The notes under the pieces were generated by a model. The model ran no database searches and had not been told where the DNA came from. It saw only the letters and a list, made by a program, of their open reading frames with translations. From a plasmid: a DNA stretch of 30,432 nucleotides. The translations under genes and the position numbers were made by a program. Numbering within the stretch: the first letter of the stretch is position 1; each line of letters begins with the position of its first letter. Positions 3,101 through 30,432 of this stretch are shown here, one piece after another. Location: sequence record NZ_CP034172.1. The stretch is one strand, 5' to 3'.

Positions 3101-3155
3101 TAAATTTTTATTTAGTACAAAAGTATTAATAATTTATTTCGAATTCTAACTGCGT

Positions 3156-3300
3156 TAGTGATTGTAGCTATTGTTGGAAATCCTTTTTTATAGTCGGAAA
3201 AAACATTTTAAAAAAAGAAAGTCCGAAAAATAAATTTCAGACTGGAAAAAAAGATTGACTGCGAAAAGCACGACCGAAAGGGAACGCCCAAATTTATTAA
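3156..3300. repeat. ~145-bp 'tail' element. A second copy at 20422-20568 directly abuts the 1.24 kb repeat there. Contains the TAGTCGGAAAAAACATTT box.
   Basis: About 95% identical to 20422-20568 (gttagtgattgtagcKattgttggaaatcc…agtcggaaaaaacattt…gtccgaaaaataaatttcagactg…gattgactgcgaaaagcacgaccgaaagggaacgcccaa). In this copy the repeat and the tail are separated by the 2.1 kb nuclease+methyltransferase cassette. Confidence 0.8.
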
Positions 3301-13654: not shown

Positions 13655-13701
13655 CAACAAATTTAAATTAATTTTTCCAAATATACGCAACTTTGTTATT
13701 T
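13655..13701 (-). promoter_or_regulatory. Conserved promoter-like element upstream of traE. The same ~40-mer is found upstream of the 28380-28613 operon at 28638-28676.
   Basis: acaaatttaaattaaYttttccaaatatacgcaacttt occurs in both places, about 25-30 bp from the start codons. On the coding strand it reads gcgTATATTTGg, a perfect Bacteroidetes -7 box TAnnTTTG. Confidence 0.5.
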
Positions 13702-13734
13702 TTTTTTATCCTATTTATGTCTGATAATTAGCAT

Positions 13735-15389: not shown

Positions 15390-16799
15390 TTAATATCCTC
15401 GTGAAGCGTCCATTATCTTGCTTACTGCAAATCGCACAATTTTAACCGCTGCATCAAGTGGCGTTTTAGGAACGTTCAACGGAATTCTAAAACCTAGTTC
15501 CTTGCTAATTGTACTCTGTAAACTTAAATTTCTCAATTCACTATATCCTGTTTGTTTTTTCAATTCATTTTTAATTGGCTTGAATGCTTTATTGGCTAAT
15601 GATGAAACCTGCCCTTTAACTTTGTTCTGCATTTTTTCCGAAAGGTTCTGCCGTAAATAAAGTTTTCTTTCTTTGTAATTATTATATGTATTTTCTCTTT
15701 GAAACTTAAATTTTTGGTCAAAGGAATTTTCAACTTTATTTCTAAAATTATCTCTGTTGAATCCTACATCATTATTTTTAATTTTAGAATTTCTATGATT
15801 TGCTAAAGGAGAAAGCGAAATTTTTTTATTCTTAAACTTACATTTATCATATCGCGAAACTATAACGTGAACGTGATATTGTTCTCCGCCTTTTTTCATT
15901 CCTGCCCTAACAATTTCATTAGTCGCCCTATCACGATTTAATGAAGCTTTCAGATTTTCTATTTTCTGAAAATCATTCTTTGGGTCTAAGTTTTCTATCT
16001 CTTTATAAATTTTCCTGTTCTGCATCACCCATTTATCGTTCTCTTTATATGTTCTTTTTTCCTCAACTTTACCGAACCAAACTAAATCCCTTTCATCAAG
16101 TTTTCTAGTGGACAAATCTTTACCGATTGCTTTAGCAAGTTCAATTTTTTTCTCTTTAAAAACCTCTCCATAATTTTTATCATTTTTTGAAATTCCCATC
16201 TTTTCCAAATCAGCTTTTGCCTGTTTAGAAATTTGCCTTTCTTCTAATTGAGTAGGTAAATTATTTGGATTGGCATACACTTCCCTATCAAAATTATTAG
16301 CATAATCTTTCATTACATCCTTTGTATATTCTCTCAATTGTTGGTGCATCAAATCATTTATTAATTCTTTATATTGTTTCTGCCCCTGCTCTGATTGAAG
16401 CAATATTTCTTTCTCCTTTTCACCGATTCCGTTTCTTTCTAATTCCAATTCCGCAATTTTTTTTAGATGATCCAACTCGCTTTTTGAAGGTGAAATATTT
16501 ATCATAAAAAATTGGCTCTGGTCTTTCTTTGTATTGGAAGAAATATTGTCGTCAATAATTTTACTCGCTTCTTTTTCATCAAAATATTTTTCTTCATTGG
16601 ATTCGTAATCTTGCTTAAAAAATAAATTCTTTTCTATATAAATACTATTCTCATCTATACTAGAAATATCCTCTTCATTTTCTAAAGCTCTTTCCCAAAA
16701 CTCATCAATTCTTTCTTCATTCTCCTTTGTGAGATAATCGAAAACCCCTCTTGAAGAACTAGAACCCTGCGCATTATGTTTAGTAAAATTTACAACCAC
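15390..16799 (-). CDS. mobB: Relaxase / mobilisation nuclease (Bacteroidetes MobB-type).
   Basis: 469 aa. Histidine triad-like 'QYHVHVIVSRYD'. Lies between the small accessory genes and the coupling protein. Lys/Glu-rich C-terminus. Confidence 0.7.
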   Translation of the reverse strand: MVVNFTKHNAQGSSSSRGVFDYLTKENEERIDEFWERALENEEDISSIDENSIYIEKNLFFKQDYESNEEKYFDEKEASKIIDDNISSNTKKDQSQFFMINISPSKSELDHLKKIAELELERNGIGEKEKEILLQSEQGQKQYKELINDLMHQQLREYTKDVMKDYANNFDREVYANPNNLPTQLEERQISKQAKADLEKMGISKNDKNYGEVFKEKKIELAKAIGKDLSTRKLDERDLVWFGKVEEKRTYKENDKWVMQNRKIYKEIENLDPKNDFQKIENLKASLNRDRATNEIVRAGMKKGGEQYHVHVIVSRYDKCKFKNKKISLSPLANHRNSKIKNNDVGFNRDNFRNKVENSFDQKFKFQRENTYNNYKERKLYLRQNLSEKMQNKVKGQVSSLANKAFKPIKNELKKQTGYSELRNLSLQSTISKELGFRIPLNVPKTPLDAAVKIVRFAVSKIMDASRGY

Positions 16800-17337: not shown

Positions 17338-17339
17338 AA

Positions 17340-17570
17340 GTATAACTTTTTATATTGATTTTCAATTATTTAAATAATTTAGTATAACTTTTAGTTATAC
17401 TTTAATAAAATTACAAGTTATTTATACACTTGATTTTCAATGAATAGCGGTTTTATACCGCCATTCCCTCTTGCTCTCCATTCCTACCCCCGCATTTCTA
17501 TTGCTTAAAAGTACTCAAAATTTTTTATATGGTCGGAAAAAACATTTTAAAAAATTGAAATGATTTTCAA
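17340..17570. promoter_or_regulatory. Candidate oriT / mob promoter region.
   Basis: AT-rich intergenic region upstream of the mob operon. Contains the perfect inverted repeat aGTATAACtttAGTTATACt (~17378-17398) and the imperfect IR gAATAGCGGttttataCCGCCATTc (~17440-17465). Also one copy of the TAGTCGGAAAAAACATTTT box at 17533-17566. Confidence 0.45.
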
Positions 17571-17628
17571 AAAGTGATTAATTTCTTTTTTTTATATTTA
17601 CAACATTAATCACTAAACAAAAAATAAA

Positions 17629-18177: not shown

Positions 18178-19149
18178 TTACAAATTTTCTAAATATTTTT
18201 TTGCTTTTTTGGATTGGATAAAAGCGTTTTTAATATTCTCAATTCGATTTTCTTTGTTAGTATCTGACCAACCTTTTAAATATCTAATCGAATTAATTAG
18301 TTCGCTTGAAATTCCATTTTGAAGGCAAATTAACATAGAACCCATTTCCGCTATCAGCTCTTCAAAGGAATATTTTTCTTTATCAGAAAAACCATCTTTT
18401 AAATTTCTGTTTAGTCTAGATTCGTGACCTGTCCAATGTATAATTTCGTGAAACATTGTACTGTAAAATTTATCTTCACTGATAAAAAATCTTTTTTCCG
18501 GCATCATGATTTTATCAAATCTTGGAGAATATGCTCCGGTACTTTTTTTGACAAATTCTAAAACTAGATTTCCTTTTTCGATTACAGAATTTACAAAGGA
18601 TTCACAATTTTCTTTATTCTGAAATTCTAGTTCTTCGGGTTCGTCAATGGAAATATTTAAATTTATTTCCTCTATATTTTCAATCTGATTTGAATTAAAA
18701 ACTACATAATTTTTAATGCAAGGAATTTTTACAATTTTCTTTAATTGGTCGCCTGATAAATTTTGTAATTCTTCATAAGTATATTTTTTTCCTGTTTCGG
18801 AATCCTTATAAATGAAACTAAAAAATTCTATTACCGTTCCTTTTGAACCTTTTTTTAATTTTCCGCCTGCTTTAGAAATGGCGTTGAAAGTAGCGTAAAA
18901 ACTAGAGGTGTAGCCGTTAAATAAAGTATCAATATAAAGTGCTAATAAATTGAATCCTTGATAAGCTTTTTGCGTGAATAAATTTCTAGGTTCTTGAAAT
19001 TTAAAGTTAGTGTAGGTTTCCCATTCGCTGGCTTTTACCTTATCTAAATTTTCTAAAATTTTTGTAATAAATTTATCTTCTTTTGGTTGCGAGTTGGAAG
19101 ATGTTTTGTAATTTGTTTTTGCTGTTTTTTTTGTGGCAGTTGCATTCAT
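18178..19149 (-). CDS. ardC: ArdC-like antirestriction protein (N-terminal ssDNA-binding DUF1738-type domain plus C-terminal zincin-like metalloprotease).
   Basis: 323 aa. C-terminal 'STMFHEIIHWTGHESRLNR' is the HExxH zincin motif characteristic of ArdC. Located next to the oriT/mob region. Confidence 0.75.
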   Translation of the reverse strand: MNATATKKTAKTNYKTSSNSQPKEDKFITKILENLDKVKASEWETYTNFKFQEPRNLFTQKAYQGFNLLALYIDTLFNGYTSSFYATFNAISKAGGKLKKGSKGTVIEFFSFIYKDSETGKKYTYEELQNLSGDQLKKIVKIPCIKNYVVFNSNQIENIEEINLNISIDEPEELEFQNKENCESFVNSVIEKGNLVLEFVKKSTGAYSPRFDKIMMPEKRFFISEDKFYSTMFHEIIHWTGHESRLNRNLKDGFSDKEKYSFEELIAEMGSMLICLQNGISSELINSIRYLKGWSDTNKENRIENIKNAFIQSKKAKKYLENL

Positions 19150-19175: not shown

Positions 19176-20412
19176 TATATTGTAGTTAATTAAGTATTTA
19201 ATTCTTTTATTTATTCGGTATCGAGGAAACGTGTTTTTTTTTAAAGTGGTAGTTTTTTGTTTTCGGGGAATAGTTTTCCCTTCGTGTTTTTTCGGCTTTT
19301 TTCGGGAATGTCAAAGAACGCTCTGCTTTTCTTTATTCGTATAACTGAGGTGTCGTTTTCTTTGCTAAATGACGATAGAAATTTGAAGCTCACACAAAAC
19401 CGATAAGGCATTTTATAAAAATGATGTTCGGCTCGAAATTTATTTGCCCGAAGGGTTTAGGAGTGTCTGAAAAAATTATTGGAACTTGTGGAGATAATTT
19501 TTTTAGAAACCCAAATAAATTTTTTTGCGTGGGATTTGAATTTCTAATTTTGCATTCAGAAAACAACCTACAGTTGTCGGATATTGGAAAAGTAGCAAGC
19601 GTTCTGCGTTTCCGTGAAAAGTTGGGAAAACCGATTAGGGAACTTCTCCGAAAACAAAAAATTACCACACACTAAAATTCAAATTCCATCGTGGGGGCTT
19701 CCCGATTTTTGCCGATCAAAAAAGGTTGGGAAAAAGAAAATTGCGGTTCTTCCTTTTTTCCGAAAGAATCACATTTTTAGTAAAATTATCCTTTTGCGCA
19801 ATGGGTGAAGTGTTTTCCGGTGGAAGCTTTGCTGTAACGGAAAATCACGGAACGGAAAATGTAGCGAAAGGTTTATTTTGCGTTAAGAAAATGGGATTAT
19901 GAGTGAAAAATAAAATCAGAAATACTTGATAAACGGAATGTGCCATTTCTGGCCAAATGGAGTGTTCAATGTTTTTCGATTTTCAAAGGACTGCAATTTT
20001 TGTTAGCGGTGGCTTTGGTCGGCTAAAAATTGGGAATGGCGGTGGCTCTCTGTCGCATAATTTTTCCGGATCTGCTCCTGCAGACTTGTAAAAATTTTTT
20101 CTATGCGAACATAAAACTTATCCTGGGGGAGCTGCAGCTTCGTTTTATGCGACAAAATGAAAGGGAAAAAAATTGTGGTTCTTCCTTTTTTCCGAAAGAA
20201 TCACATTTTTAGTAAAACAATCCTGTGTGAAACTAAAGGTTTGTTTTGCGTTAAGAAAATGGGATTGTGAGTGAAAAACAAATCACGGTCTTTGCCAAAA
20301 TTGGAATGAATCGGTCTGAAAGTTCCAAGAAATTAAATGAATTGGACTGCAAGTAGAGAGAAGGGAAATTTTGGCTATGTCCGGGATTGAAGATCAACAA
20401 TTTTTTGGAGTG
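19176..20412. repeat. Complete internal copy of the ~1.24 kb non-coding direct repeat.
   Basis: 19176-19352 matches 30257-30432 and 19353-20393 matches 1-1040. GC visibly higher than the flanks. No credible ORF. Contains the TATGCGAACATA box at 20100-20111 and internal duplications. Confidence 0.85.
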
Positions 20413-20421
20413 GAAATATAC

Positions 20422-20568
20422 GTTAGTGATTGTAGCGATTGTTGGAAATCCTTTTTTTATAGTCGGAAAAAACATTTAAAAAAAAAAGTCCGAAAAATAA
20501 ATTTCAGACTGAAAAAAAAGATTGACTGCGAAAAGCACGACCGAAAGGGAACGCCCAATTTAATCTTC
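20422..20568. repeat. Second copy of the ~145-bp tail element (see 3156-3300).
   Basis: About 95% identical to 3156-3300. Includes the TAGTCGGAAAAAACATTT box at 20452-20488. Confidence 0.8.
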
Positions 20569-21444
20569 ATATCCAAAATTCAAATTGTTAGAAAAAACAA
20601 ACTCGTCAATTTCTTTAATTGATTTACTTCCTAAATTTCTAAATTTCCACAAATCTTTTTTATTTAATCGAATTAAATCTTCTATTGTTAAAATATTACT
20701 CCCCTTTAATGAATTAATAGTTCTATTACTCAATGAAAACTCAATATCATCAATAAATTTATCTAACATTGGATTTCTAGGCTCTTTAGGGATTTCGGGT
20801 TTTACATTCAATTGATGTTCTAATATTTTGACTTTAGTATGAAGTTCATTAAAATGTTTTTTGGAATAATTAACCTGTCTTAAAGTGTTTTTTAAGTGCT
20901 TATTTAGACGTTTCTGAAAATCAAAAACTATTTGACTAACTCTATCTTTTGAAAGGTTATATTCATAAGAAATATCGTGTAGAGATTTTTTATGAATATA
21001 ATGCATCAATAGAATTTCTTGATGTCTAGGAGTAATAATATTAAATAAATAAGAAATATGAATAATGAGTTGTAAAGAATCATTCAACAAAGAAAAATCT
21101 AAATTTATTGCATCGGAATATTCTAAAAATTTAAAATCTGCTTTTTCGTAATTATCCCAAAATTCATTGGCGAAAATATAAACGATCCCCTTATTGGTAG
21201 TAGTTTGAAAAAAAGAAATGATTTTTGTTTCGATAAAATATTTGTTAAATACATTTCGACTAATGCCAATGTTATTGCAAAACTCTTTAAGTCTTATTGG
21301 TTGTTCATTTATGATTCGCTCAACTAGAGAAGCATTTTTTAGAATAAATGTACAACTTCGAGTATCTAAATTTAATTTATTTGCAACTAAAACTTCAAGT
21401 GTTCTAGAAGGTTCAATTTCCAAAATTTTAGTAGTTTCTTGCAT
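20560..21444 (-). CDS. Transcriptional regulator with a sigma-70 region-4-like HTH and a C-terminal RNA-polymerase alpha-subunit CTD-like (helix-hairpin-helix) domain.
   Basis: 294 aa. 'RHQEILLMHYIHKKSLHDISYEYNLSKDRVSQIVFDFQKRLNKHL' looks like sigma region 4. 'SLSNRTINSLKGSNILTIEDLIRLNKKDLWKFRNLGSKSIKEIDEF' parallels RpoA aCTD '…[45 protein letters not shown]'. Confidence 0.55.
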   Translation of the reverse strand: MQETTKILEIEPSRTLEVLVANKLNLDTRSCTFILKNASLVERIINEQPIRLKEFCNNIGISRNVFNKYFIETKIISFFQTTTNKGIVYIFANEFWDNYEKADFKFLEYSDAINLDFSLLNDSLQLIIHISYLFNIITPRHQEILLMHYIHKKSLHDISYEYNLSKDRVSQIVFDFQKRLNKHLKNTLRQVNYSKKHFNELHTKVKILEHQLNVKPEIPKEPRNPMLDKFIDDIEFSLSNRTINSLKGSNILTIEDLIRLNKKDLWKFRNLGSKSIKEIDEFVFSNNLNFGYED

Positions 21445-23176: not shown

Positions 23177-23216
23177 TTAATTATTGATAATTACATTTAA
23201 CGACAATATAATATCG

Positions 23217-23780: not shown

Positions 23781-23973
23781 AATTACACTTTATTCATCTT
23801 GAACAAATTTAATGTAATTTGAATTAATGTACAAGGAAAATGAACAAAGAATTTTAAATAAAATTTATTTTATTAGAATTCCTTTCCAGTACATAAAACC
23901 GACCGTTTTTGAAAACTTTTTTCTTTTGGCGCAACTTTTCTTTTTTTTTTCATTACCAAATGGAAAAATATTT

Positions 23974-24013
23974 TTAAATGTTTTTTCCGACTATAAAAAT
24001 TGTCTGAAAGACA
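23974..24013. promoter_or_regulatory. Candidate res / recombinase binding site.
   Basis: Perfect inverted repeat TGTCTgaaAGACA (24001-24013), resembling resolvase half-sites (TGTCYnnTA). Immediately preceded by an inverted copy of the TAGTCGGAAAAAACATTT box (23976-23999). About 200 bp upstream of the recombinase start. Confidence 0.4.
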
Positions 24014-24160: not shown

Positions 24161-24441
24161 AGTGTAGGTGTATACTTATTAAGAGTGTAGGTATATCCTT
24201 ATAATCTACTCTTAAACGGTGTAGGTCTATACTGTATATTCAATTAAAGAGTGTAGGTCTATACTTCACTATCAGTGTAGGTCTATACTTAAGCGGTGTA
24301 CCTTTATACTTAAACGGTGTACCTTTATACTTATACGGTGTAGGTCTATACTTAAACGGTGTACCTTCATACTTAAATGGTGTAGGTGTATGCTTAAACG
24401 GTGTATGTCTGTACTTAATTAGTGTAGTGCTATAATTAATT
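24161..24441. repeat. Iteron array: about 12 direct repeats, consensus GGTGTAGGTCTATACTTAAAC, with eight units in strict 21-bp phasing. Probable vegetative replication origin.
   Basis: Read directly. Units start at 24161, 24184, 24218, 24250, 24274, 24295, 24316, 24337, 24358, 24379, 24400 and 24421. Contiguous with no spacers. AT-rich stretch on the 5' side. Adjacent to the Rep gene. Confidence 0.85.
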
Positions 24442-24486: not shown

Positions 24487-25545
24487 CTAAATTCTTAATT
24501 TCTTCTCCAGCTTCATTATTGAACCAGATCTTTTGCCTATAAACTTAGATTCCTTGTTATCATAATGCTGGTTAAAGGTAACGGCTTTGTTAAATCTATT
24601 AAACATATTTTCCTGCCCTATCCTCTGCAATAAAAATAATATCTGACTTTCAGTCAAGCCATAGGCTAAAAACGATTTTAATGCTGTTTGATGCACTTCC
24701 GAGAGATTGTTTATGTCGAGGCGTTTTTGAAATTTAAAGTGTAAATTAGTAATCTTTCTACCAACTTTAACGGTTTCATAGGAAATATGGGAAATATCTA
24801 ATTTCTCGTTCGAATTGAAATCGTTTATTGCAGGATCCAGGAACACTCTTTTAAATTCTGACCAACGAGCAAGATATTCTACTCTTTCATAATCGGGAGA
24901 AATTTCTTTTGTGTCAAATAAAAACTTCAGTTGCAGTTGTTTTGTAGTTTCACTCTTGTTCTTTTCGTTTTTATAAACAATAAACCCCAACAAAACCTTT
25001 AGCTCTTCAAGAGAAACCCTGTAAATTCCAGTTGCTTTGAATTGGGAAAGCAATTCAAACAACTTTTTTCTTTTGTCGCCCTTTAAGTCAATAATACTAC
25101 TCTCAATTTGGGTATACTGAACCCTTGTTTTGTTAGCATATTCTAAAGCGTGTTTTTCATAAAAGAAAATCTTACCCCATTTAGCAAATCTTACAATAAA
25201 TTCATTGGCATCTTCATCACTTACAGAAACACTATCAATAACATTAAAAAACTCGGTGATCTTTGTTTGCGTGTTGTAGAAAACTCCGTTAATGTGTATC
25301 AAGCCTGAACATATTTCCAAAAGTTCAGAAACTGAATAGAAACTGTTTTTCTTTACATTCTTATACTCTAGAAACTTATTGTAATTAAAGATTATTTCTT
25401 CCTCTGGGTTGGGATCACGAAAATTTATTAACGTTTGCAGATAGTAGATTATATCTTTCTGCATTTCCGTAACTCCCCTCATTACGCTCTGCGTAAAGAA
25501 ATTGGATTGTAATAAATAGTTTGAGTTTTTATCTGTGGACTTCAT
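24487..25545 (-). CDS. repB: Plasmid replication initiator (RepB / Rep_3-like, iteron-binding).
   Basis: 352 aa. N-terminal 'NYLLQSNFFTQSV…MQKDIIYYLQTLIN' resembles the Rep_3 initiator N-terminus. Directly adjacent to the iteron array. Confidence 0.65.
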   Translation of the reverse strand: MKSTDKNSNYLLQSNFFTQSVMRGVTEMQKDIIYYLQTLINFRDPNPEEEIIFNYNKFLEYKNVKKNSFYSVSELLEICSGLIHINGVFYNTQTKITEFFNVIDSVSVSDEDANEFIVRFAKWGKIFFYEKHALEYANKTRVQYTQIESSIIDLKGDKRKKLFELLSQFKATGIYRVSLEELKVLLGFIVYKNEKNKSETTKQLQLKFLFDTKEISPDYERVEYLARWSEFKRVFLDPAINDFNSNEKLDISHISYETVKVGRKITNLHFKFQKRLDINNLSEVHQTALKSFLAYGLTESQILFLLQRIGQENMFNRFNKAVTFNQHYDNKESKFIGKRSGSIMKLEKKLRI

Positions 25546-26403: not shown

Positions 26404-26901
26404 TTATTTTAAACTTCCCTTAAAATCTTTCAATAACTGCTCTATAAAATCATCTTTAGTGTAGTTTGTAGAAAGAAAGTCACCGTCTTTATTGATATTC
26501 TTTGAATACATAAAGTCGTAAATAAATTCCCTATCAACAGCCGAAATTCTACAGCTTGTAAAAACACGTTCTGTCTTGGTAGAATTAGACCGTTTTCCTC
26601 TGCGAGTTGGAATAACTCCGTTAGGTCGTAAAGGCAAATCTTTATATTTATTTCGCATTATCTCTATACCATCCCTAATCACATCCGAAACGCAATAATG
26701 AAAGTCATCTTTTCTTTTTATAGCTTCAATCTCTCTCAATTGTTCAACGACTTGCATTTGAAGTAAAAAGGAGAAAGTAACATTATTTATTAATGAAGTT
26801 TCTTCGATCTGTTGTTTAGGTTCTTGGTGTGGTTGCTCCTGTAACTCCGCTACCTTTCCCCACGCTTCCGCCATTTTCTCTGCTGCACTTTTATTTTTCA
26901 T
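26404..26901 (-). CDS. Hypothetical protein immediately downstream of parA, translationally coupled. Possible partition adaptor or TraB-like partner.
   Basis: 165-aa ORF, ATGA overlap with the parA stop at 26901. Confidence 0.45.
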   Translation of the reverse strand: MKNKSAAEKMAEAWGKVAELQEQPHQEPKQQIEETSLINNVTFSFLLQMQVVEQLREIEAIKRKDDFHYCVSDVIRDGIEIMRNKYKDLPLRPNGVIPTRRGKRSNSTKTERVFTSCRISAVDREFIYDFMYSKNINKDGDFLSTNYTKDDFIEQLLKDFKGSLK

Positions 26902-27655
26902 TACTTTATCTTTTTAATTATTTCTTTATATAAATTCTTGAAATCTAATGAAGCCCGGCTATTGGGTGCAATTTCAAAAATTGTTTTGCCTTTTTTCTTG
27001 GCTTCATTTACATTAATATCTTGCCTAATATATGTTTTAAAAAGTGCGTCTTTCACAACGGAATTTTGAATTTCAAAATAATACTTTTTAAAATCTTTTG
27101 AGCGCACCATTACTTTGTTAAAGAAAAACCCCAAATACTCGAATTTTAGACCGTATTTCGCCTTTAATGACATAATAGCAGGGTATAACTTGTAAACTCC
27201 CGAAATAGAGAATTCTTCCGCTTCTATAGGGCTAATAACATAATCACTAGCAAATAGGGCTATTTCAGCTAAAGAAAGCTTATTGGTAAGCGGTTTGCTC
27301 GGCGGACAATCTATAATTACATAATCAAAAATTCCGTCAATGGCTTCAATACTTGTTTTCAATGAATTTTGATTGAAATCTAAATCTTCCAAAAGCTCCG
27401 AACCCTCTAGAACATAGATATTGTTAAAATTTCCCTTCTCTGCAAATTTTATATTCCCTTTTTTCTCCAAAAATTCTGCAACGGTAAAATCTTCTCCCTC
27501 GACCTTTAAACCTAACGATAAATTGCATTGACTGTCAAATCAATAAGAAGTACCTTTTTATTTTTTGAAGCGAAACAATCGCTTAAATGAATGCTTGTGG
27601 TTGTTTTCCCCACTCCGCCTTTCTGTGTTAATATTGTGAAAATTTTAGTTTTCAT
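26901..27655 (-). CDS. parA: ParA/Soj-type partition ATPase (TraA-like). Interrupted by one 1-nt frameshift; the ORF-track piece 26901-27470 lacks the Walker A box.
   Basis: ATG at 27653-27655 gives [40 protein letters not shown] (deviant Walker A 'KGGVGKTT'). Shifting frame near 27533-27540 continues [28 protein letters not shown]…, which is the listed ORF. Confidence 0.8.
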
Positions 27656-27696
27656 ATTTATTTATATATTGTAGTTAAAAATTAAATGAAGAAAAA

Positions 27697-28613: not shown

Positions 28614-28637
28614 ATATTTTTATGTTTATTGTTACAA

Positions 28638-28676
28638 ATTTAAATTAACTTTTCCAAATATACGCAACTTTTTAAA
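28638..28676 (-). promoter_or_regulatory. Second copy of the conserved promoter-like 40-mer (see 13655-13701).
   Basis: acaaatttaaattaacttttccaaatatacgcaacttt. The coding-strand reading contains the TATATTTG -7 box about 25 bp from the ATG at 28613. Confidence 0.5.
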
Positions 28677-28815
28677 ATTATTTTAATATTTATTTATAGA
28701 TTGTAGTTAAATATATTTGAATTTTTTCACTTATTTATTTGGTTATCGAGAATACGTTTTTTTATCGGAGGTAAGTTTTTTGGCGGAATTTTTGAACAAA
28801 TATTGTGACAAAAAA

Positions 28816-28850
28816 ACTGTAAAAAAGCCACTTTTAAAGTGGCTTTCAAT
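28816..28850 (-). terminator. Rho-independent terminator downstream of ssb.
   Basis: AGCCACTTTtaAAGTGGCT perfect stem. On the minus strand it is followed by TTTTTT (the aaaaaa at 28811-28816 on the plus strand). Confidence 0.7.
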
Positions 28851-29197
28851 TATTCTTCCGCTACTTCAACATCTTTATTGTTTCCATCAAGGAAAGTAAC
28901 TTTTTGCGCTACGATTTCAGTAATGTAATGTTTAGCGTTTTCTTTTTCGTAATTGCGTGTCTGCAATTTTCCTGTAATGGCTACCAAAGAACCTTTTTTG
29001 ATATACTTTTCGCAATTCTCGGCAGTCTTATTGTTCACTACTATATTATGCCATTCGGTTTTGGTTTCCTTTTGTCCTTCGGCATTAGTATAATGCTCGT
29101 TTGTTGCTAGAGAAAATGAGCCTTTTTTTCCGCCATTCTCAAAATCTGTGATTTTTACATCATCGCCTAATCTTCCGATTAAATTTACTTGGTTCAT
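28850..29197 (-). CDS. ssb: Single-stranded DNA-binding protein (short plasmid-type SSB, OB fold).
   Basis: 115 aa. 'MNQVNLIGRLGDDVKI…FSLATNEHYTNAEGQKETKTEWHNIVV…LVAITGKLQTRNYE' is the canonical SSB OB-fold pattern, with an acidic C-terminus. Confidence 0.85.
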   Translation of the reverse strand: MNQVNLIGRLGDDVKITDFENGGKKGSFSLATNEHYTNAEGQKETKTEWHNIVVNNKTAENCEKYIKKGSLVAITGKLQTRNYEKENAKHYITEIVAQKVTFLDGNNKDVEVAEE

Positions 29198-29427: not shown

Positions 29428-29732
29428 TATGTAATTATTATTTAGTTAATAAATTTAGTTAAAATACGATTAACCTATATATCGTGAGGTTTTAAATTTT
29501 ACTTCTTTCTAAACAAATTTTTAGCCATTTCAAAAGTCGTAAATATTTTTAAGTTCGGGCTTTACAAATAGAATAAGTTTCCAAAGAACCCTGTTCCAAA
29601 TGAATTTTAAAAATTTCATTATTAAAAGAATGATGAAGAAACTTATTACAACGGCTATTGCCTTTAATGTGAAATCTTCCATAATTATAATATTTTAAAT
29701 ATTTAGTTAAATATTGTAGTTAAATATAAAAT

Positions 29733-30028: not shown

Positions 30029-30238
30029 TTAATGGGTTAAAATAAATTGTAGTGTGTGTGGTTCAGAATTTTTGATGGCTTGAATAAATGGGAGATATTC
30101 ATAGGCAAAAAGGACTTCGCATAGTTCCTTAAAATCTCTGTAGCCGTGCGCTTGAATTTCATTTAAACAACTTTGATAAGTGTTAAAAATCGGTTCAAGG
30201 TTCAAAAGGTCTTTTTTTAGTTCGTCTGAATTTTTCAT
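30029..30238 (-). CDS. Hypothetical small protein.
   Basis: 69-aa ORF. Upstream region similar to the ardC upstream region (TTGTAGTTAA box). Confidence 0.4.
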   Translation of the reverse strand: MKNSDELKKDLLNLEPIFNTYQSCLNEIQAHGYRDFKELCEVLFAYEYLPFIQAIKNSEPHTLQFILTH

Positions 30239-30256
30239 AATTTATATATTTAGTTA

Positions 30257-30432
30257 AATATTGTAGTTAATTAAGTATTTAATTCTTTTATTTATTCGGT
30301 ATCGAGGAAACGTGTTTTTTTTTAAAGTGGTAGTTTTTTGTTTTCGGGGAATAGTTTTCCCTTCGTGTTTTTTCGGCTTTTTTCGGGAATGTCAAAGAAC
30401 GCTCTGCTTTTCTTTATTCGTATAACTGAGGT
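30257..30432. repeat. Left-hand portion of the wrap-around copy of the ~1.24 kb repeat (continues at position 1).
   Basis: Identical to 19176-19352. Window end plus window start reproduces 19345-19370 exactly (tataactgaggt|gtcgttttctttgc). Confidence 0.85.

Follow-up and report, generated by a model that had tools for sequence, protein, structure and literature searches.

The window we analyzed (30,432 nucleotides of plasmid DNA from sequence record NZ_CP034172.1) contains a 1.24-kb repeat in two direct copies, which is best understood as a duplicated non-coding module made up of long DNA hairpins. Each copy is probably a single-stranded DNA (ssDNA) promoter module of the Frpo/ssi kind, lying in the plasmid leading region and turning on anti-restriction and establishment genes from the strand that enters a recipient in conjugation. 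An ssDNA-active promoter was among the options raised by a first-pass annotation of this DNA, and it is the one we favor, given the fold of hairpin H1, its covariation, its strand bias and the Bacteroidota promoter boxes it aims at ardC. The mechanism is known from E. coli plasmids; as far as we found, the literature contains no description of it in Bacteroidota.

Copy A occupies positions 19176-20412 and copy B positions 30257-30432, continuing at 1-1058. Both are given on the + strand, which is the folding strand, and each comprises a 13-mer motif, H1, H2, a small hairpin and H3. With the window treated as a circle for this comparison, the copies align over about 1,237 nt and differ solely by two 1-nt homopolymer indels, in a T-run at A19498 and an A-run at A19674 (by blastn, with the fuzzy edges included, 99.2% over 1,261 nt). 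Judged against copy A, the sequence continues unbroken from the end of the window to its start, which makes a circular reading self-consistent. On both sides of the repeat, identity decays gradually with no sharp stop. The repeat is richer in GC (36.1%) than the flanking genes (26.3%) or the whole window (31.5%), and it contains duplicated modules of 59 nt (at 19734 and 20166) and 55 nt (at 19860 and 20228). The near-identical direct copies, the raised GC content and the internal duplications had all been described in the first-pass annotation, and our measurements bear them out.

The same annotation found no credible open reading frame in the repeat, and we agree. A 98-codon open stretch in copy A is interrupted in copy B, and the relatives' translations give background scores. 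Open stretches vary in strand, frame and length among homologues and between copies A and B, with cross-translations scoring 26-47. A protein-coding gene or pseudogene was rejected because no reading frame is kept among homologues. The tiny frames MGL* and MSEK*, singled out earlier, do sit in a conserved nucleotide block, but neither their frames nor their lengths are conserved. The 12-mer TATGCGAACATA, proposed as a protein-binding-like site, turns out to be part of the small stem between H2 and H3, and we found no evidence in the repeat for the suggested centromere-like sites. Mobile-element identity, which the annotation had set against its own reading, was tested, and an IS element, transposon or MITE was rejected: the terminal 40-mers match at 11 of 40 positions, so that terminal inverted repeats are missing, no target site is duplicated, the flanking sequences bear no relation to each other and the edges are gradual. 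Rfam 15, including STAXI and Flavo-1, gave no gathering-level match anywhere in the window and only noise inside the element at E ≤ 1; Flavo-1-like matches below threshold occur outside the repeat. The window contains no tRNA or tmRNA genes.

Each copy folds into three long hairpins, best on the + strand. H1 spans 19246-19668 in copy A (423 nt, about 180 pairs, apex loop at 19480-19493) and 30327-30432 plus 1-316 in copy B (bulge at 20-24, apex loop at 129-142, promoter boxes at 172-200). As DNA, it folds with -93.1 kcal/mol on the + strand (z = -11.9) and -79.1 kcal/mol on the - strand. In a fold scan, the two copies were the sole strong outliers in the window.

Covariation and cognate arm pairing provide strong evidence that the H1 fold is under selection. 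The 69 pairs of the core are 97.2% paired. Compensatory double changes affect 17 pairs; shuffling gave 3.6 ± 1.5 (0/500), and slid controls gave 3-7. Because MAFFT with RNAalifold failed to align the basal arms, we examined these by comparing cognate with non-cognate pairing. In three lineages, the unalignable arms pair with their own partners only; those of the window reach -63.7 kcal/mol with their cognates and -22 kcal/mol or weaker with non-cognate arms. The + strand is the more stable folder in every case compared, and H1 mismatches comprise 91 G·T and 32 A·C, a difference of moderate significance (p = 0.006 after base-composition correction). This excess indicates that the folding strand is the template strand of the downstream genes.

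H2 (19698-20040, + strand; 345-687 in copy B) contains modules D5 and D7, and H3 (20165-20406, + strand; 812-1053 in copy B) contains the second D5/D7 pair and forms the right end of the repeat with its base. Their DNA fold z-scores are -3.95 and -4.07, respectively. The nhmmer profile detected no homology between either hairpin and the H1 core, and no canonical -7 box was found in them. They may serve as accessory hairpins, possibly offering extra start or priming sites.

Published Bacteroidota promoters carry TAHHTTTG at -12 to -5 and TTTG at -33 (PMC6847099). The 3' arm of H1 holds a predicted promoter that is a textbook match to this pattern and is aimed at ardC. Its boxes (19524-19552, + strand) consist of TTTG at 19524-19527 (-33 to -30), a 17-nt spacer and TAATTTTG at 19545-19552 (-12 to -5), so that TTTG-N17-TAATTTTG fits the published -33/-7 geometry. 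They run from apex to base, the sole arrangement that directs transcription to ardC, and the predicted +1 at 19557/19558 faces template T19362/T19361. On the 5' (template) arm, a 5-nt bulge, GACGA (19371-19375, + strand), faces the point in the -7 box where -11 meets -10; family members keep the size of this bulge but not its sequence. A T·T mismatch is present at -6 and a small loop at +1, and 13 sequences drawn from two classes share this geometry of bulge, mismatch and loop. The earliest stretch of the transcript is predicted to be templated by a near-invariant left-arm block, TTTATTCGTATAAyTGAGGTGTCnTTTTCTTTGCTAAAT (19330-19370, + strand). When genome contigs were searched with the left-arm DNA pattern, seven loci matched; metagenome and viral contigs gave no match.

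Conservation of the two boxes is uneven. The 16 Weeksellaceae copies show no variation in the -7 box, and four of five distant plasmids have a canonical one; C. shandongense has CAAATTTG in its place, and in Elizabethkingia position -10 is a G. Most relatives have a degenerate form of the -33 TTTG (TTTA). By itself, TAHHTTTG is about as common in the window as chance predicts (43 matches, 40.9 expected). On the sense strand it is absent from the roughly 1.4 kb upstream of ardC and of the 69-aa ORF that follows copy B, and on the + strand no -7 box lies to the left of H1. The sole canonical + strand promoter is the one inside H1, on the 3' arm, and in the dsDNA form its box would fire away from ardC. 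A sigma-70 consensus scan was uninformative for Bacteroidota. Counting against an ssDNA promoter is the plasmid-specific 13-mer ATATTGTAGTTAA at the left repeat edge (19177-19189, + strand), which recurs at 30258, 29711, 28698 and 27666, each time upstream of a minus-strand gene start; it could be an ordinary promoter or operator for those genes.

The H1 core is too long for a practical covariance model and has a large variable apex, and the family search was made with an nhmmer profile. Members, 325-485 nt long, occur in plasmids of Chryseobacterium, Kaistella, Elizabethkingia, Myroides, Flavobacterium and Sphingobacterium and in metagenomes. They always lie just upstream of ardC, ssb-ardC or DUF6876-par operons, adjoining the relaxase and on the same strand, and this position and orientation relative to the genes is kept across two classes. 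The profile matched exactly twice in the window and in each of four related Chryseobacterium plasmids. When the whole element was compared with PLSDB (72,556 plasmids; blastn, word size 11), only four Chryseobacterium records matched. All four related plasmids are closed, and in each the element occupies the same pair of sites, one upstream of ardC and the other upstream of a DUF6876/par/rep operon.

The genes in the two arcs between the copies are as described in the first-pass annotation. One arc encodes TraG/TraM/TraQ, T4CP, a DUF5712 relaxase, ArdC, GmrSD-HNH and a truncated EcoRI-like methylase; the other encodes a sigma70_r4/alpha-CTD protein, SNase, a resolvase, Rep3 with iterons, ParA and SSB. 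Of the genes downstream of copy A, ardC (18178-19149, - strand), with ArdC-N and zincin metallopeptidase domains, comes first. Downstream of copy B, the 69-aa ORF (30029-30238, - strand) heads a same-strand string of small ORFs, ssb (28850-29197, - strand), parA and rep. The element adjoins the relaxase/oriT side, upstream of ardC and ssb. The relaxase gene (15390-16799, - strand), whose relatives are typed MOBB, served to infer the lagging side of oriT. A candidate oriT is the inverted-repeat-rich intergenic region at 17338-17628, from the mob genes to the ardC side; a nic site was looked for in the window and not found. MOB type B elements show anti-defence enrichment in the leading region. 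This enrichment, gene orientation and the rule that the relaxase enters last together point to the + strand as the transferred strand.

On this basis, the + strand would enter the recipient 5' to 3' from the oriT beside the relaxase genes, with ardC first and copy A after it. Once both H1 arms were inside, they would pair with each other to give about 210 bp of duplex, rebuilding a Bacteroidota sigma-A promoter on the 3' arm (TTTG at -33, TAATTTTG at -12 to -5). The bulge opposite -11/-10, the T·T mismatch at -6 and the loop at +1 would leave this promoter partly pre-opened. Host RNA polymerase could then use the 5' arm as template, exit through the hairpin base and transcribe ardC via a leader of about 213 nt. 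Copy B would likewise drive the string of 69-aa ORF, ssb, par and rep, ahead of complementary-strand synthesis, which the transcript could also prime, as with Frpo. Polymerase binding, the start site and activity restricted to ssDNA are all predicted features of H1.

Frpo and ssi hairpins lie upstream of ssb, psiB, ardA and klcA, are present in several copies and are read on the T-strand (PMC11541004, PMC12672017, PMC9849209). The closest counterparts of H1 are those of class 1, Frpo1/Frpo2 of F and ssi1-3 of ColIb-P9/pESBL. Like H1, these are non-coding hairpins of a few hundred nucleotides upstream of ssb/anti-restriction operons. They lie in the leading region and are read on the transferred strand, and their stem rebuilds host promoter boxes aimed at the downstream genes, as we predict for H1; several near-identical direct copies occur per plasmid, as here. 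However, H1 has no sequence similarity to class 1 (blastn against PLSDB, where F-like and IncI plasmids should be represented), and its boxes are of the Bacteroidota -33/-7 type (TTTG and TAHHTTTG) where those of class 1 are TTGACA and TATAAT. H1 is also larger, is joined in this lineage by two further hairpins in a 1.24-kb unit, and is known here from sequence. The class 2/3 ssDNA promoters of pESBL, upstream of ardA, klcA and M.EcoGIX, are unrelated hairpins with the same job and, like H1, were found by a homology-free hairpin search. They differ in having Enterobacteria hosts, sigma-70 boxes and confirmation by 5' RACE in recipients, whereas our account of H1 comes from sequence analysis. 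In rolling-circle plasmids, ssoA and ssoU are orientation-specific, structured non-coding DNA that RNA polymerase recognizes in single-stranded form. H1 resembles them in being orientation-specific structured ssDNA but belongs to a Rep3 iteron replicon and is tied to operon starts. STAXI (RF01728) is a tandem structured motif near ssb/anti-restriction genes for which an ssDNA role has been considered (PMC2864571); it is a short Enterobacterales pseudoknot, in contrast to H1, and cmscan returned no match to it here even at E ≤ 1.

A strand-specific fold suits any ssDNA role, and the hairpins might be single-strand initiation signals only (ssi/sso-like), where a polymerase or primase primes the complementary strand and no mRNA promoter is involved. 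Frpo itself has been described as both a promoter and a source of primer RNA, and H2 and H3, which lack a canonical -7 box, have significant folds. We nevertheless consider initiation alone unlikely: it fails to explain why the element stands constantly upstream of the first gene of the ardC, ssb or par operon and is aimed at that operon, or why those operons lack a sense-strand -7 box. An initiation function is compatible with the ssDNA promoter model.

Less likely still is a role at the RNA level, with one large structured + strand non-coding RNA, or a set of small RNAs, transcribed from the element antisense to the genes around it. As RNA, the + strand of H1 folds very stably (-176.6 kcal/mol, z = -13.9), G·U pairs favor that strand, and terminator-like hairpins are enriched on it (7 found, 1.5 expected). 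However, the promoter lies inside the hairpin, so an RNA begun there cannot hold both arms: a transcript from the 3' arm lacks the 5' arm and cannot form the conserved structure. The lack of a + strand -7 box left of H1 and of an Rfam family likewise argues against such an RNA, as do basal arms conserved in complementarity only. The structured RNA that the first-pass annotation had also suggested is therefore a weaker candidate than the promoter it listed beside it.

The sense (-) strand mRNA could instead have a long 5' leader in which the hairpins act in processing, attenuation or stability. On that strand, which folds well above background (RNA z = -8.3), the element separates the end of one gene from the start of the next. 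But the - strand is consistently the weaker folder, its wobbles become A·C mismatches, no sense-strand promoter was found upstream, and a terminator-like site (20510-20487) follows the gene upstream of the element; we regard a leader as very improbable. Near-identical copies, one of them across the window junction, and indels typical of long-read error might suggest a selfish palindromic repeat, a MITE, the scar of a cointegrate or an artefact of assembly. Any of these is hardly credible for an element with its ends and gradual borders, with diverged copies at the same two positions in four closed plasmids and with its gene-relative position and orientation kept across two classes.

The ssDNA promoter model allows a bolder form, which we put forward as doubtful: H1 may sense strandedness and switch direction, firing leftward as an ssDNA hairpin (into ardC, or into ssb/par/rep) and rightward as dsDNA, such that conversion shuts off the establishment genes and redirects polymerase. 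If so, transcription of the dsDNA form would run into the + strand terminator-like hairpins, the bulge at -11/-10 would be a natural fork-junction mimic, and H2 and H3 would represent a new kind of accessory start or priming signal. In that case, no class of single-strand promoters would have been described before the H1 family for the divergent Bacteroidota sigma-A polymerase.

Early expression from incoming ssDNA gives enterobacterial plasmids anti-defence proteins before restriction or CRISPR acts. Previous ssDNA promoters were located through similarity to Frpo or through TTGACA/TATAAT in short intergenic regions, approaches that would both miss Bacteroidota because the main sigma factor there reads different boxes. 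The conserved, covarying hairpin family in plasmids of Flavobacteriia and Sphingobacteriia appears to use the same logic with a Bacteroidota promoter grammar. It offers a testable handle on plasmid establishment in a phylum with fish and human pathogens, such as Chryseobacterium and Elizabethkingia, and could mark leading regions, and hence anti-defence genes, in Bacteroidota mobile elements. H1 may also serve polymerase studies as a natural pre-opened Bacteroidota promoter.

The ssDNA promoter model would explain how a small plasmid comes to tolerate long identical direct repeats. If the copies recombined, the replicon would plausibly be split from the transfer genes, a hazard also noted for Frpo1 and Frpo2 of the F plasmid, which are 92% identical and a recognized recombination substrate (PMC9849209). 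The cointegrate-like history proposed in the first-pass annotation was not supported. Within each of the four related plasmids the two elements have diverged to 78-90% identity while keeping the same two positions, which makes the pair ancestral; the near-identity of the copies in the window reflects recent homogenization.

The two direct copies of the 1.24-kb repeat lie at 19176–20412 (copy A) and at 30257–30432 continuing into 1–1058 (copy B). With the window treated as a circle, they align over ~1,237 nt and are identical apart from one-base homopolymer indels at A19498 and A19674; blastn, which counts in the fuzzy edges, gives 99.2% identity over 1,261 nt. Across the junction of the window's end with its start, the sequence follows copy A exactly, which makes the circular reading self-consistent. 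The repeat is GC-richer (36.1%) than its flanking genes (26.3%) or the whole window (31.5%), its + strand is G-rich, and it contains duplicated internal modules of 59 nt (19734/20166) and 55 nt (19860/20228). The first-pass annotation was accurate on the two direct copies, the GC contrast and the existence of internal modules, as it was in seeing no credible ORF. The longest open stretch of copy A, 98 codons, is already interrupted in copy B, and no reading frame is conserved between the copies or among homologues, whose open stretches differ in strand and frame and whose cross-translations score at background; a coding role is therefore rejected. The tiny ORFs MGL* and MSEK* sit within a conserved nucleotide block, where their length varies (MSEKQN* in relatives) and the ATG is lost in H3, the last of the repeat's three hairpin domains.

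An IS or MITE is likewise ruled out, because the ends match at only 11/40 positions, with no terminal inverted repeats and no target duplication, and because identity between the copies falls off gradually at both edges. The right end of the repeat coincides with the base of H3 and the left end with a 13-mer motif adjoining start codons. Over the whole window, no Rfam family scored at gathering level; relaxing the threshold for the element produced only noise, and no tRNA genes were found in the window.

The pair had also been read as the mark of a cointegrate-like history, and comparison with other plasmids was proposed. Blastn of the repeat against 72,556 plasmids matched only four Chryseobacterium plasmids (67–86% identity), each in two places. 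In all four, the first place is directly upstream of ardC, beside DUF5712/MOBB relaxase genes, and the second is on the same strand, upstream of a DUF6876/hypothetical/ParA/Rep operon. Within-plasmid identity is 90% in pA2BH1, 81% in WT7 and 78% in C. oryzae and WT5, compared to 99.2% by blastn in the window. Because four relatives have diverged copies (78–90%) in both places, the pair is ancestral to the plasmid group, and the near-identity seen here points to recent homogenisation, not cointegration.

Nested long-range inverted repeats give the + strand of each copy three hairpin domains. H1 (19246–19668) is a nearly continuous 423-nt stem-loop of ~180 pairs. Folded as DNA, it reaches −93.1 kcal/mol on the + strand (z = −11.9) against −79.1 for the − strand; the corresponding RNA folds come to −176.6 and −121.7. 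H2 (19698–20040; z = −3.95) and H3 (20165–20406; z = −4.07) also favour the + strand and have the internal modules D5 and D7 in common, whose mutual pairing makes an inner hairpin. In a fold scan of the whole window, copies A and B were the only strong outliers. A block conserved between H2 and H3 (GCGTkAAGAAAATrGrATnrTGAGTGAAAAAyAAA) is present a single time in the ardC-side copies of relatives; it has neither a canonical −7 box nor homology to the H1 core.

The covariance check suggested in the first-pass annotation revealed selection on this fold. Across 16 aligned copies, the 69 core pairs of H1 are paired in 97.2% of cases, and 17 of these pairs carry compensatory double changes, compared to 3.6 ± 1.5 in column shuffles (0/500 reach 17) and 3–7 when partners are slid by 1–3 columns. 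The basal arm halves of H1 are not alignable between lineages; each pairs specifically with its own partner (−63.7 kcal/mol in the window, −22 or weaker with foreign arms). Within the ardC-type cluster this pairing is −21 to −42, versus −3 to −15 outside it, and WT7 reaches ~−26 within. The par-operon-side copies in C. oryzae, WT5 and Kaistella are shorter hairpins without the basal extension.

For a strand test that uses no folding model, we aligned the left (5′) arm to the reverse complement of the right (3′) arm in seven divergent members. Transition mismatches are G.T in 91 cases and A.C in 32 (p = 1e-7 if equal shares are assumed); from base composition a G.T share of 63% would be expected, and against this the excess has p = 0.006. 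These values indicate that the strand under selection is the + strand, the template of ardC and every downstream gene. Separately, a left-arm block (TTTATTCGTATAAyTGAGGTGTC; 19330–19354, and 30411–30432 plus 1–3 in copy B) shows almost no variation in any Weeksellaceae copy, a degree of conservation beyond what base pairing by itself would demand, and would encode about the first 10–35 nt of the predicted transcript.

The right arm of H1 contains promoter-like boxes: TTTG at 19524–19527 and, after 17 nt, TAATTTTG at 19545–19552. The Flavobacterium consensus is TAHHTTTG at −12 to −5 with a weaker TTTG near −33 (PMC6847099). Setting G19552 at −5 places TTTG at −33 to −30 and the predicted +1 at 19557/19558, opposite template bases T19362/T19361, with a leader of ~213 nt before the start codon of ardC. 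Both boxes lie on the 3′ arm and read from the apex down to the base; in no other layout would a polymerase that copies the 5′ arm leave the hairpin towards ardC. The duplex shape around the −7 box is fixed in 13 sequences of two classes: in box order, paired T(−12) and A(−11), a template-arm bulge (GACGA, 19371–19375) conserved in its 5-nt size and not in sequence, paired A(−10)TTT, a T.T mismatch at −6, paired GCA, a small loop from −2 to +1 and paired AGAAAA. Strand opening by sigma-70-family polymerases starts at −11, and we infer from this that the bulge looks like a built-in fork junction.

By itself, the motif TAHHTTTG is no commoner in the window than chance predicts (43 matches, 40.9 expected); what gives it weight is that it is invariant and fixed in place within the hairpin. 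The sense strand has no such box within ~1.4 kb upstream of either ardC or a 69-aa ORF (30029–30238), and sense-strand boxes are present at other operons, for example at 13658–13685 and 28635–28662. In duplex form, transcription from the H1 box would run to the right, into terminator-like hairpins of the + strand (seven found, 1.5 expected).

The plasmid in the window is small, conjugative and of Bacteroidota type, and its genes are almost all on the − strand. Among their products, Pfam identified TraG, TraM, TraQ, a coupling protein, a DUF5712 relaxase (15390–16799), ArdC (18178–19149), SSB (28850–29197), SNase, a resolvase and a Rep3-type initiator (24487–25545), just upstream of which an array of ~nine 21-bp iterons (24168–24439) is the vegetative origin. 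Copy A separates the end of a sigma70_r4/alpha-CTD gene from the ardC start, and copy B separates the end of a GmrSD gene from the 69-aa ORF, the first member of a run of small ORFs, ssb, parA and rep on one strand. Given this order and strand, both copies are long upstream regions, on the coding strand, of genes typical of plasmid establishment.

We conclude that the repeat is probably a duplicated single-stranded-DNA promoter module of the leading region. The Frpo/ssi promoters of F and IncI plasmids are large leading-region stem-loops that rebuild promoter boxes, express ssb, psiB, ardA and klcA from the T-strand as it arrives, fall inactive once duplex and can also give primer RNA (PMC11541004, PMC12672017, PMC9849209). 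The hairpins fit this logic in fold, boxes and kind of downstream gene, as far as sequence can tell. A repeat-rich intergenic region (17338–17628) has relaxase genes to its left and ardC to its right, pointing back towards it. By the usual rule, the T-strand is the template of leading-region genes and the relaxase comes in last, which would make the + strand the transferred one; MOB type B elements do show the anti-defence enrichment expected. On entering the recipient, the + strand would bring ardC, then copy A, the replicon genes and copy B. Folded H1 would rebuild a Bacteroidota promoter, and polymerase would take the 5′ arm as template and exit towards ardC. We infer the nic site, transferred strand, polymerase binding, start site and duplex silence from sequence; three independent features (which strand folds, on which arm and in which direction the boxes lie, and what kind of gene follows) agree with + strand transfer.

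Recombination between the direct repeats would yield one circle with rep, par and ssb and another with the transfer genes. Frpo1 and Frpo2 of F, 92% identical and ~5 kb apart, carry the same hazard (PMC9849209), so duplicated, homogenised copies seem normal for this element class rather than a plasmid-fusion scar. The non-coding, structured, ssDNA-promoter option of the first-pass annotation gains from the hairpin and box geometry, whereas its cointegrate history gives way to the diverged pairs in relatives.

The H1 family extends further. The conserved left-arm pattern occurs at seven further loci in Chryseobacterium and Kaistella genomes, in the same two kinds of context, and had no match in metagenome or viral collections. 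More distant Bacteroidota plasmids were reached by tblastn with ArdC and then fold-scanned. In C. shandongense, Elizabethkingia anophelis, Sphingobacterium faecium, Myroides odoratimimus and Flavobacterium sp., one hairpin stands out immediately ahead of the leading gene of the ardC operon, which in E. anophelis reads hyp-hyp-hyp-ssb-ardC-DUF6876; except in Sphingobacterium, the template strand gives the stabler fold. These 325–485-nt hairpins are homologous to the H1 core, a homology that BLAST did not detect, and have in common TTCGTGAG...TTTTCTGTGC in the left arm, TTTAGGAGTGTCTG on the apex side, and AGAAACCyCAAtAaATTTTT then TAATTTTGCAnCAAGAAAA in the right arm. An nhmmer H1-core profile gave exactly two matches, on one strand, in the window and in each of the four Chryseobacterium plasmids, and a further copy upstream of JAB-ardC in C. 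balustinum. It also matched 5 of 80 metagenomic ArdC loci, each match lying on the template strand and stopping ~60 nt before ardC. Among eight ArdC loci without a profile match, six have an upstream template-strand-biased hairpin, five of these with a TAHHTTTG box in the 3′ half.

On E. anophelis plasmid CP016375 (locus L018, 842–1096), one operon containing three small ORFs, ssb, ardC and DUF6876 follows the hairpin, combining the two gene sets that separate copies serve in the window. In Chryseobacterium sp. Marseille-Q5410, a 2.1-Mb contig (locus L008, 2194–2442) has an H1 core minus the left basal arm, 476 nt upstream of chromosomal recA-htpG, which may be a remnant of an integrated element.

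Full-text literature searches returned no paper in which ssDNA promoters or Frpo are connected to Bacteroidota. A published survey considered regulatory regions of 50–350 bp, similarity to five known Frpo/ssi sequences and TTGACA/TATAAT boxes (PMC11541004), and would miss the H1 family because of that size range, those seeds and those box types. STAXI has gene context in common with the repeat but is a different, Enterobacterales pseudoknot motif. We rate the H1 family as the same functional idea as Frpo/ssi in an unrelated sequence family with a different promoter grammar, and the module as a putative larger, modular form in a new phylum.

Several other features of the plasmid were observed. 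Beside an intact GmrSD-N/HNH nuclease gene (1068–2153, − strand) lies a truncated EcoRI-like adenine methyltransferase (2337–2825, − strand) covering only profile positions 103–249 of 345. The gene directly upstream of copy A (20560–21444, − strand) encodes a 294-aa protein that pairs sigma-70 region 4 with an RNAP alpha-CTD, unusual for a plasmid regulator. parA is split on the − strand into a 47-aa N-terminal ORF with Walker A (27512–27655) and a 189-aa C-terminal ORF (26901–27470), reflecting either a frameshift (pseudogene) or a sequencing error. A Flavo-1-like module of ~145 nt, with a 53-nt insertion at its apex, occurs on the + strand at 20418–20546, directly flanking copy A, and at 3144–3279, near the SLT gene, with Rfam scores below the gathering score of 42 (29.0 bits, E = 2e-4; 23.9 bits, E = 0.03). 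A 30-nt piece of it recurs at 17523–17554, near the candidate oriT, and inverted at 23967–23999, upstream of the resolvase gene, and is also found in related plasmids.

Two short repeats accompany gene starts. A 52-nt direct repeat, 88% identical (13657–13708 and 28634–28685), has two sense-strand TAHHTTTG boxes and lies upstream of a transfer-gene ORF and of a 77-aa ORF; it resembles an ordinary double-stranded promoter that serves in two places. The 13-mer ATATTGTAGTTAA forms the core of a 42-nt repeat; it is absent from 101/101 related loci and matches the window six times (0.14 expected): on the + strand at 19177–19189, 27666–27678, 28698–28710, 29711–29723 and 30258–30270, and on the − strand at 23197–23209. 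Five genes of the minus strand (ardC, parA, the 77-aa ORF, a 50-aa ORF and the 69-aa ORF) have it 0–75 nt upstream of their starts, and it may be an ordinary plasmid-specific promoter or operator for establishment genes.
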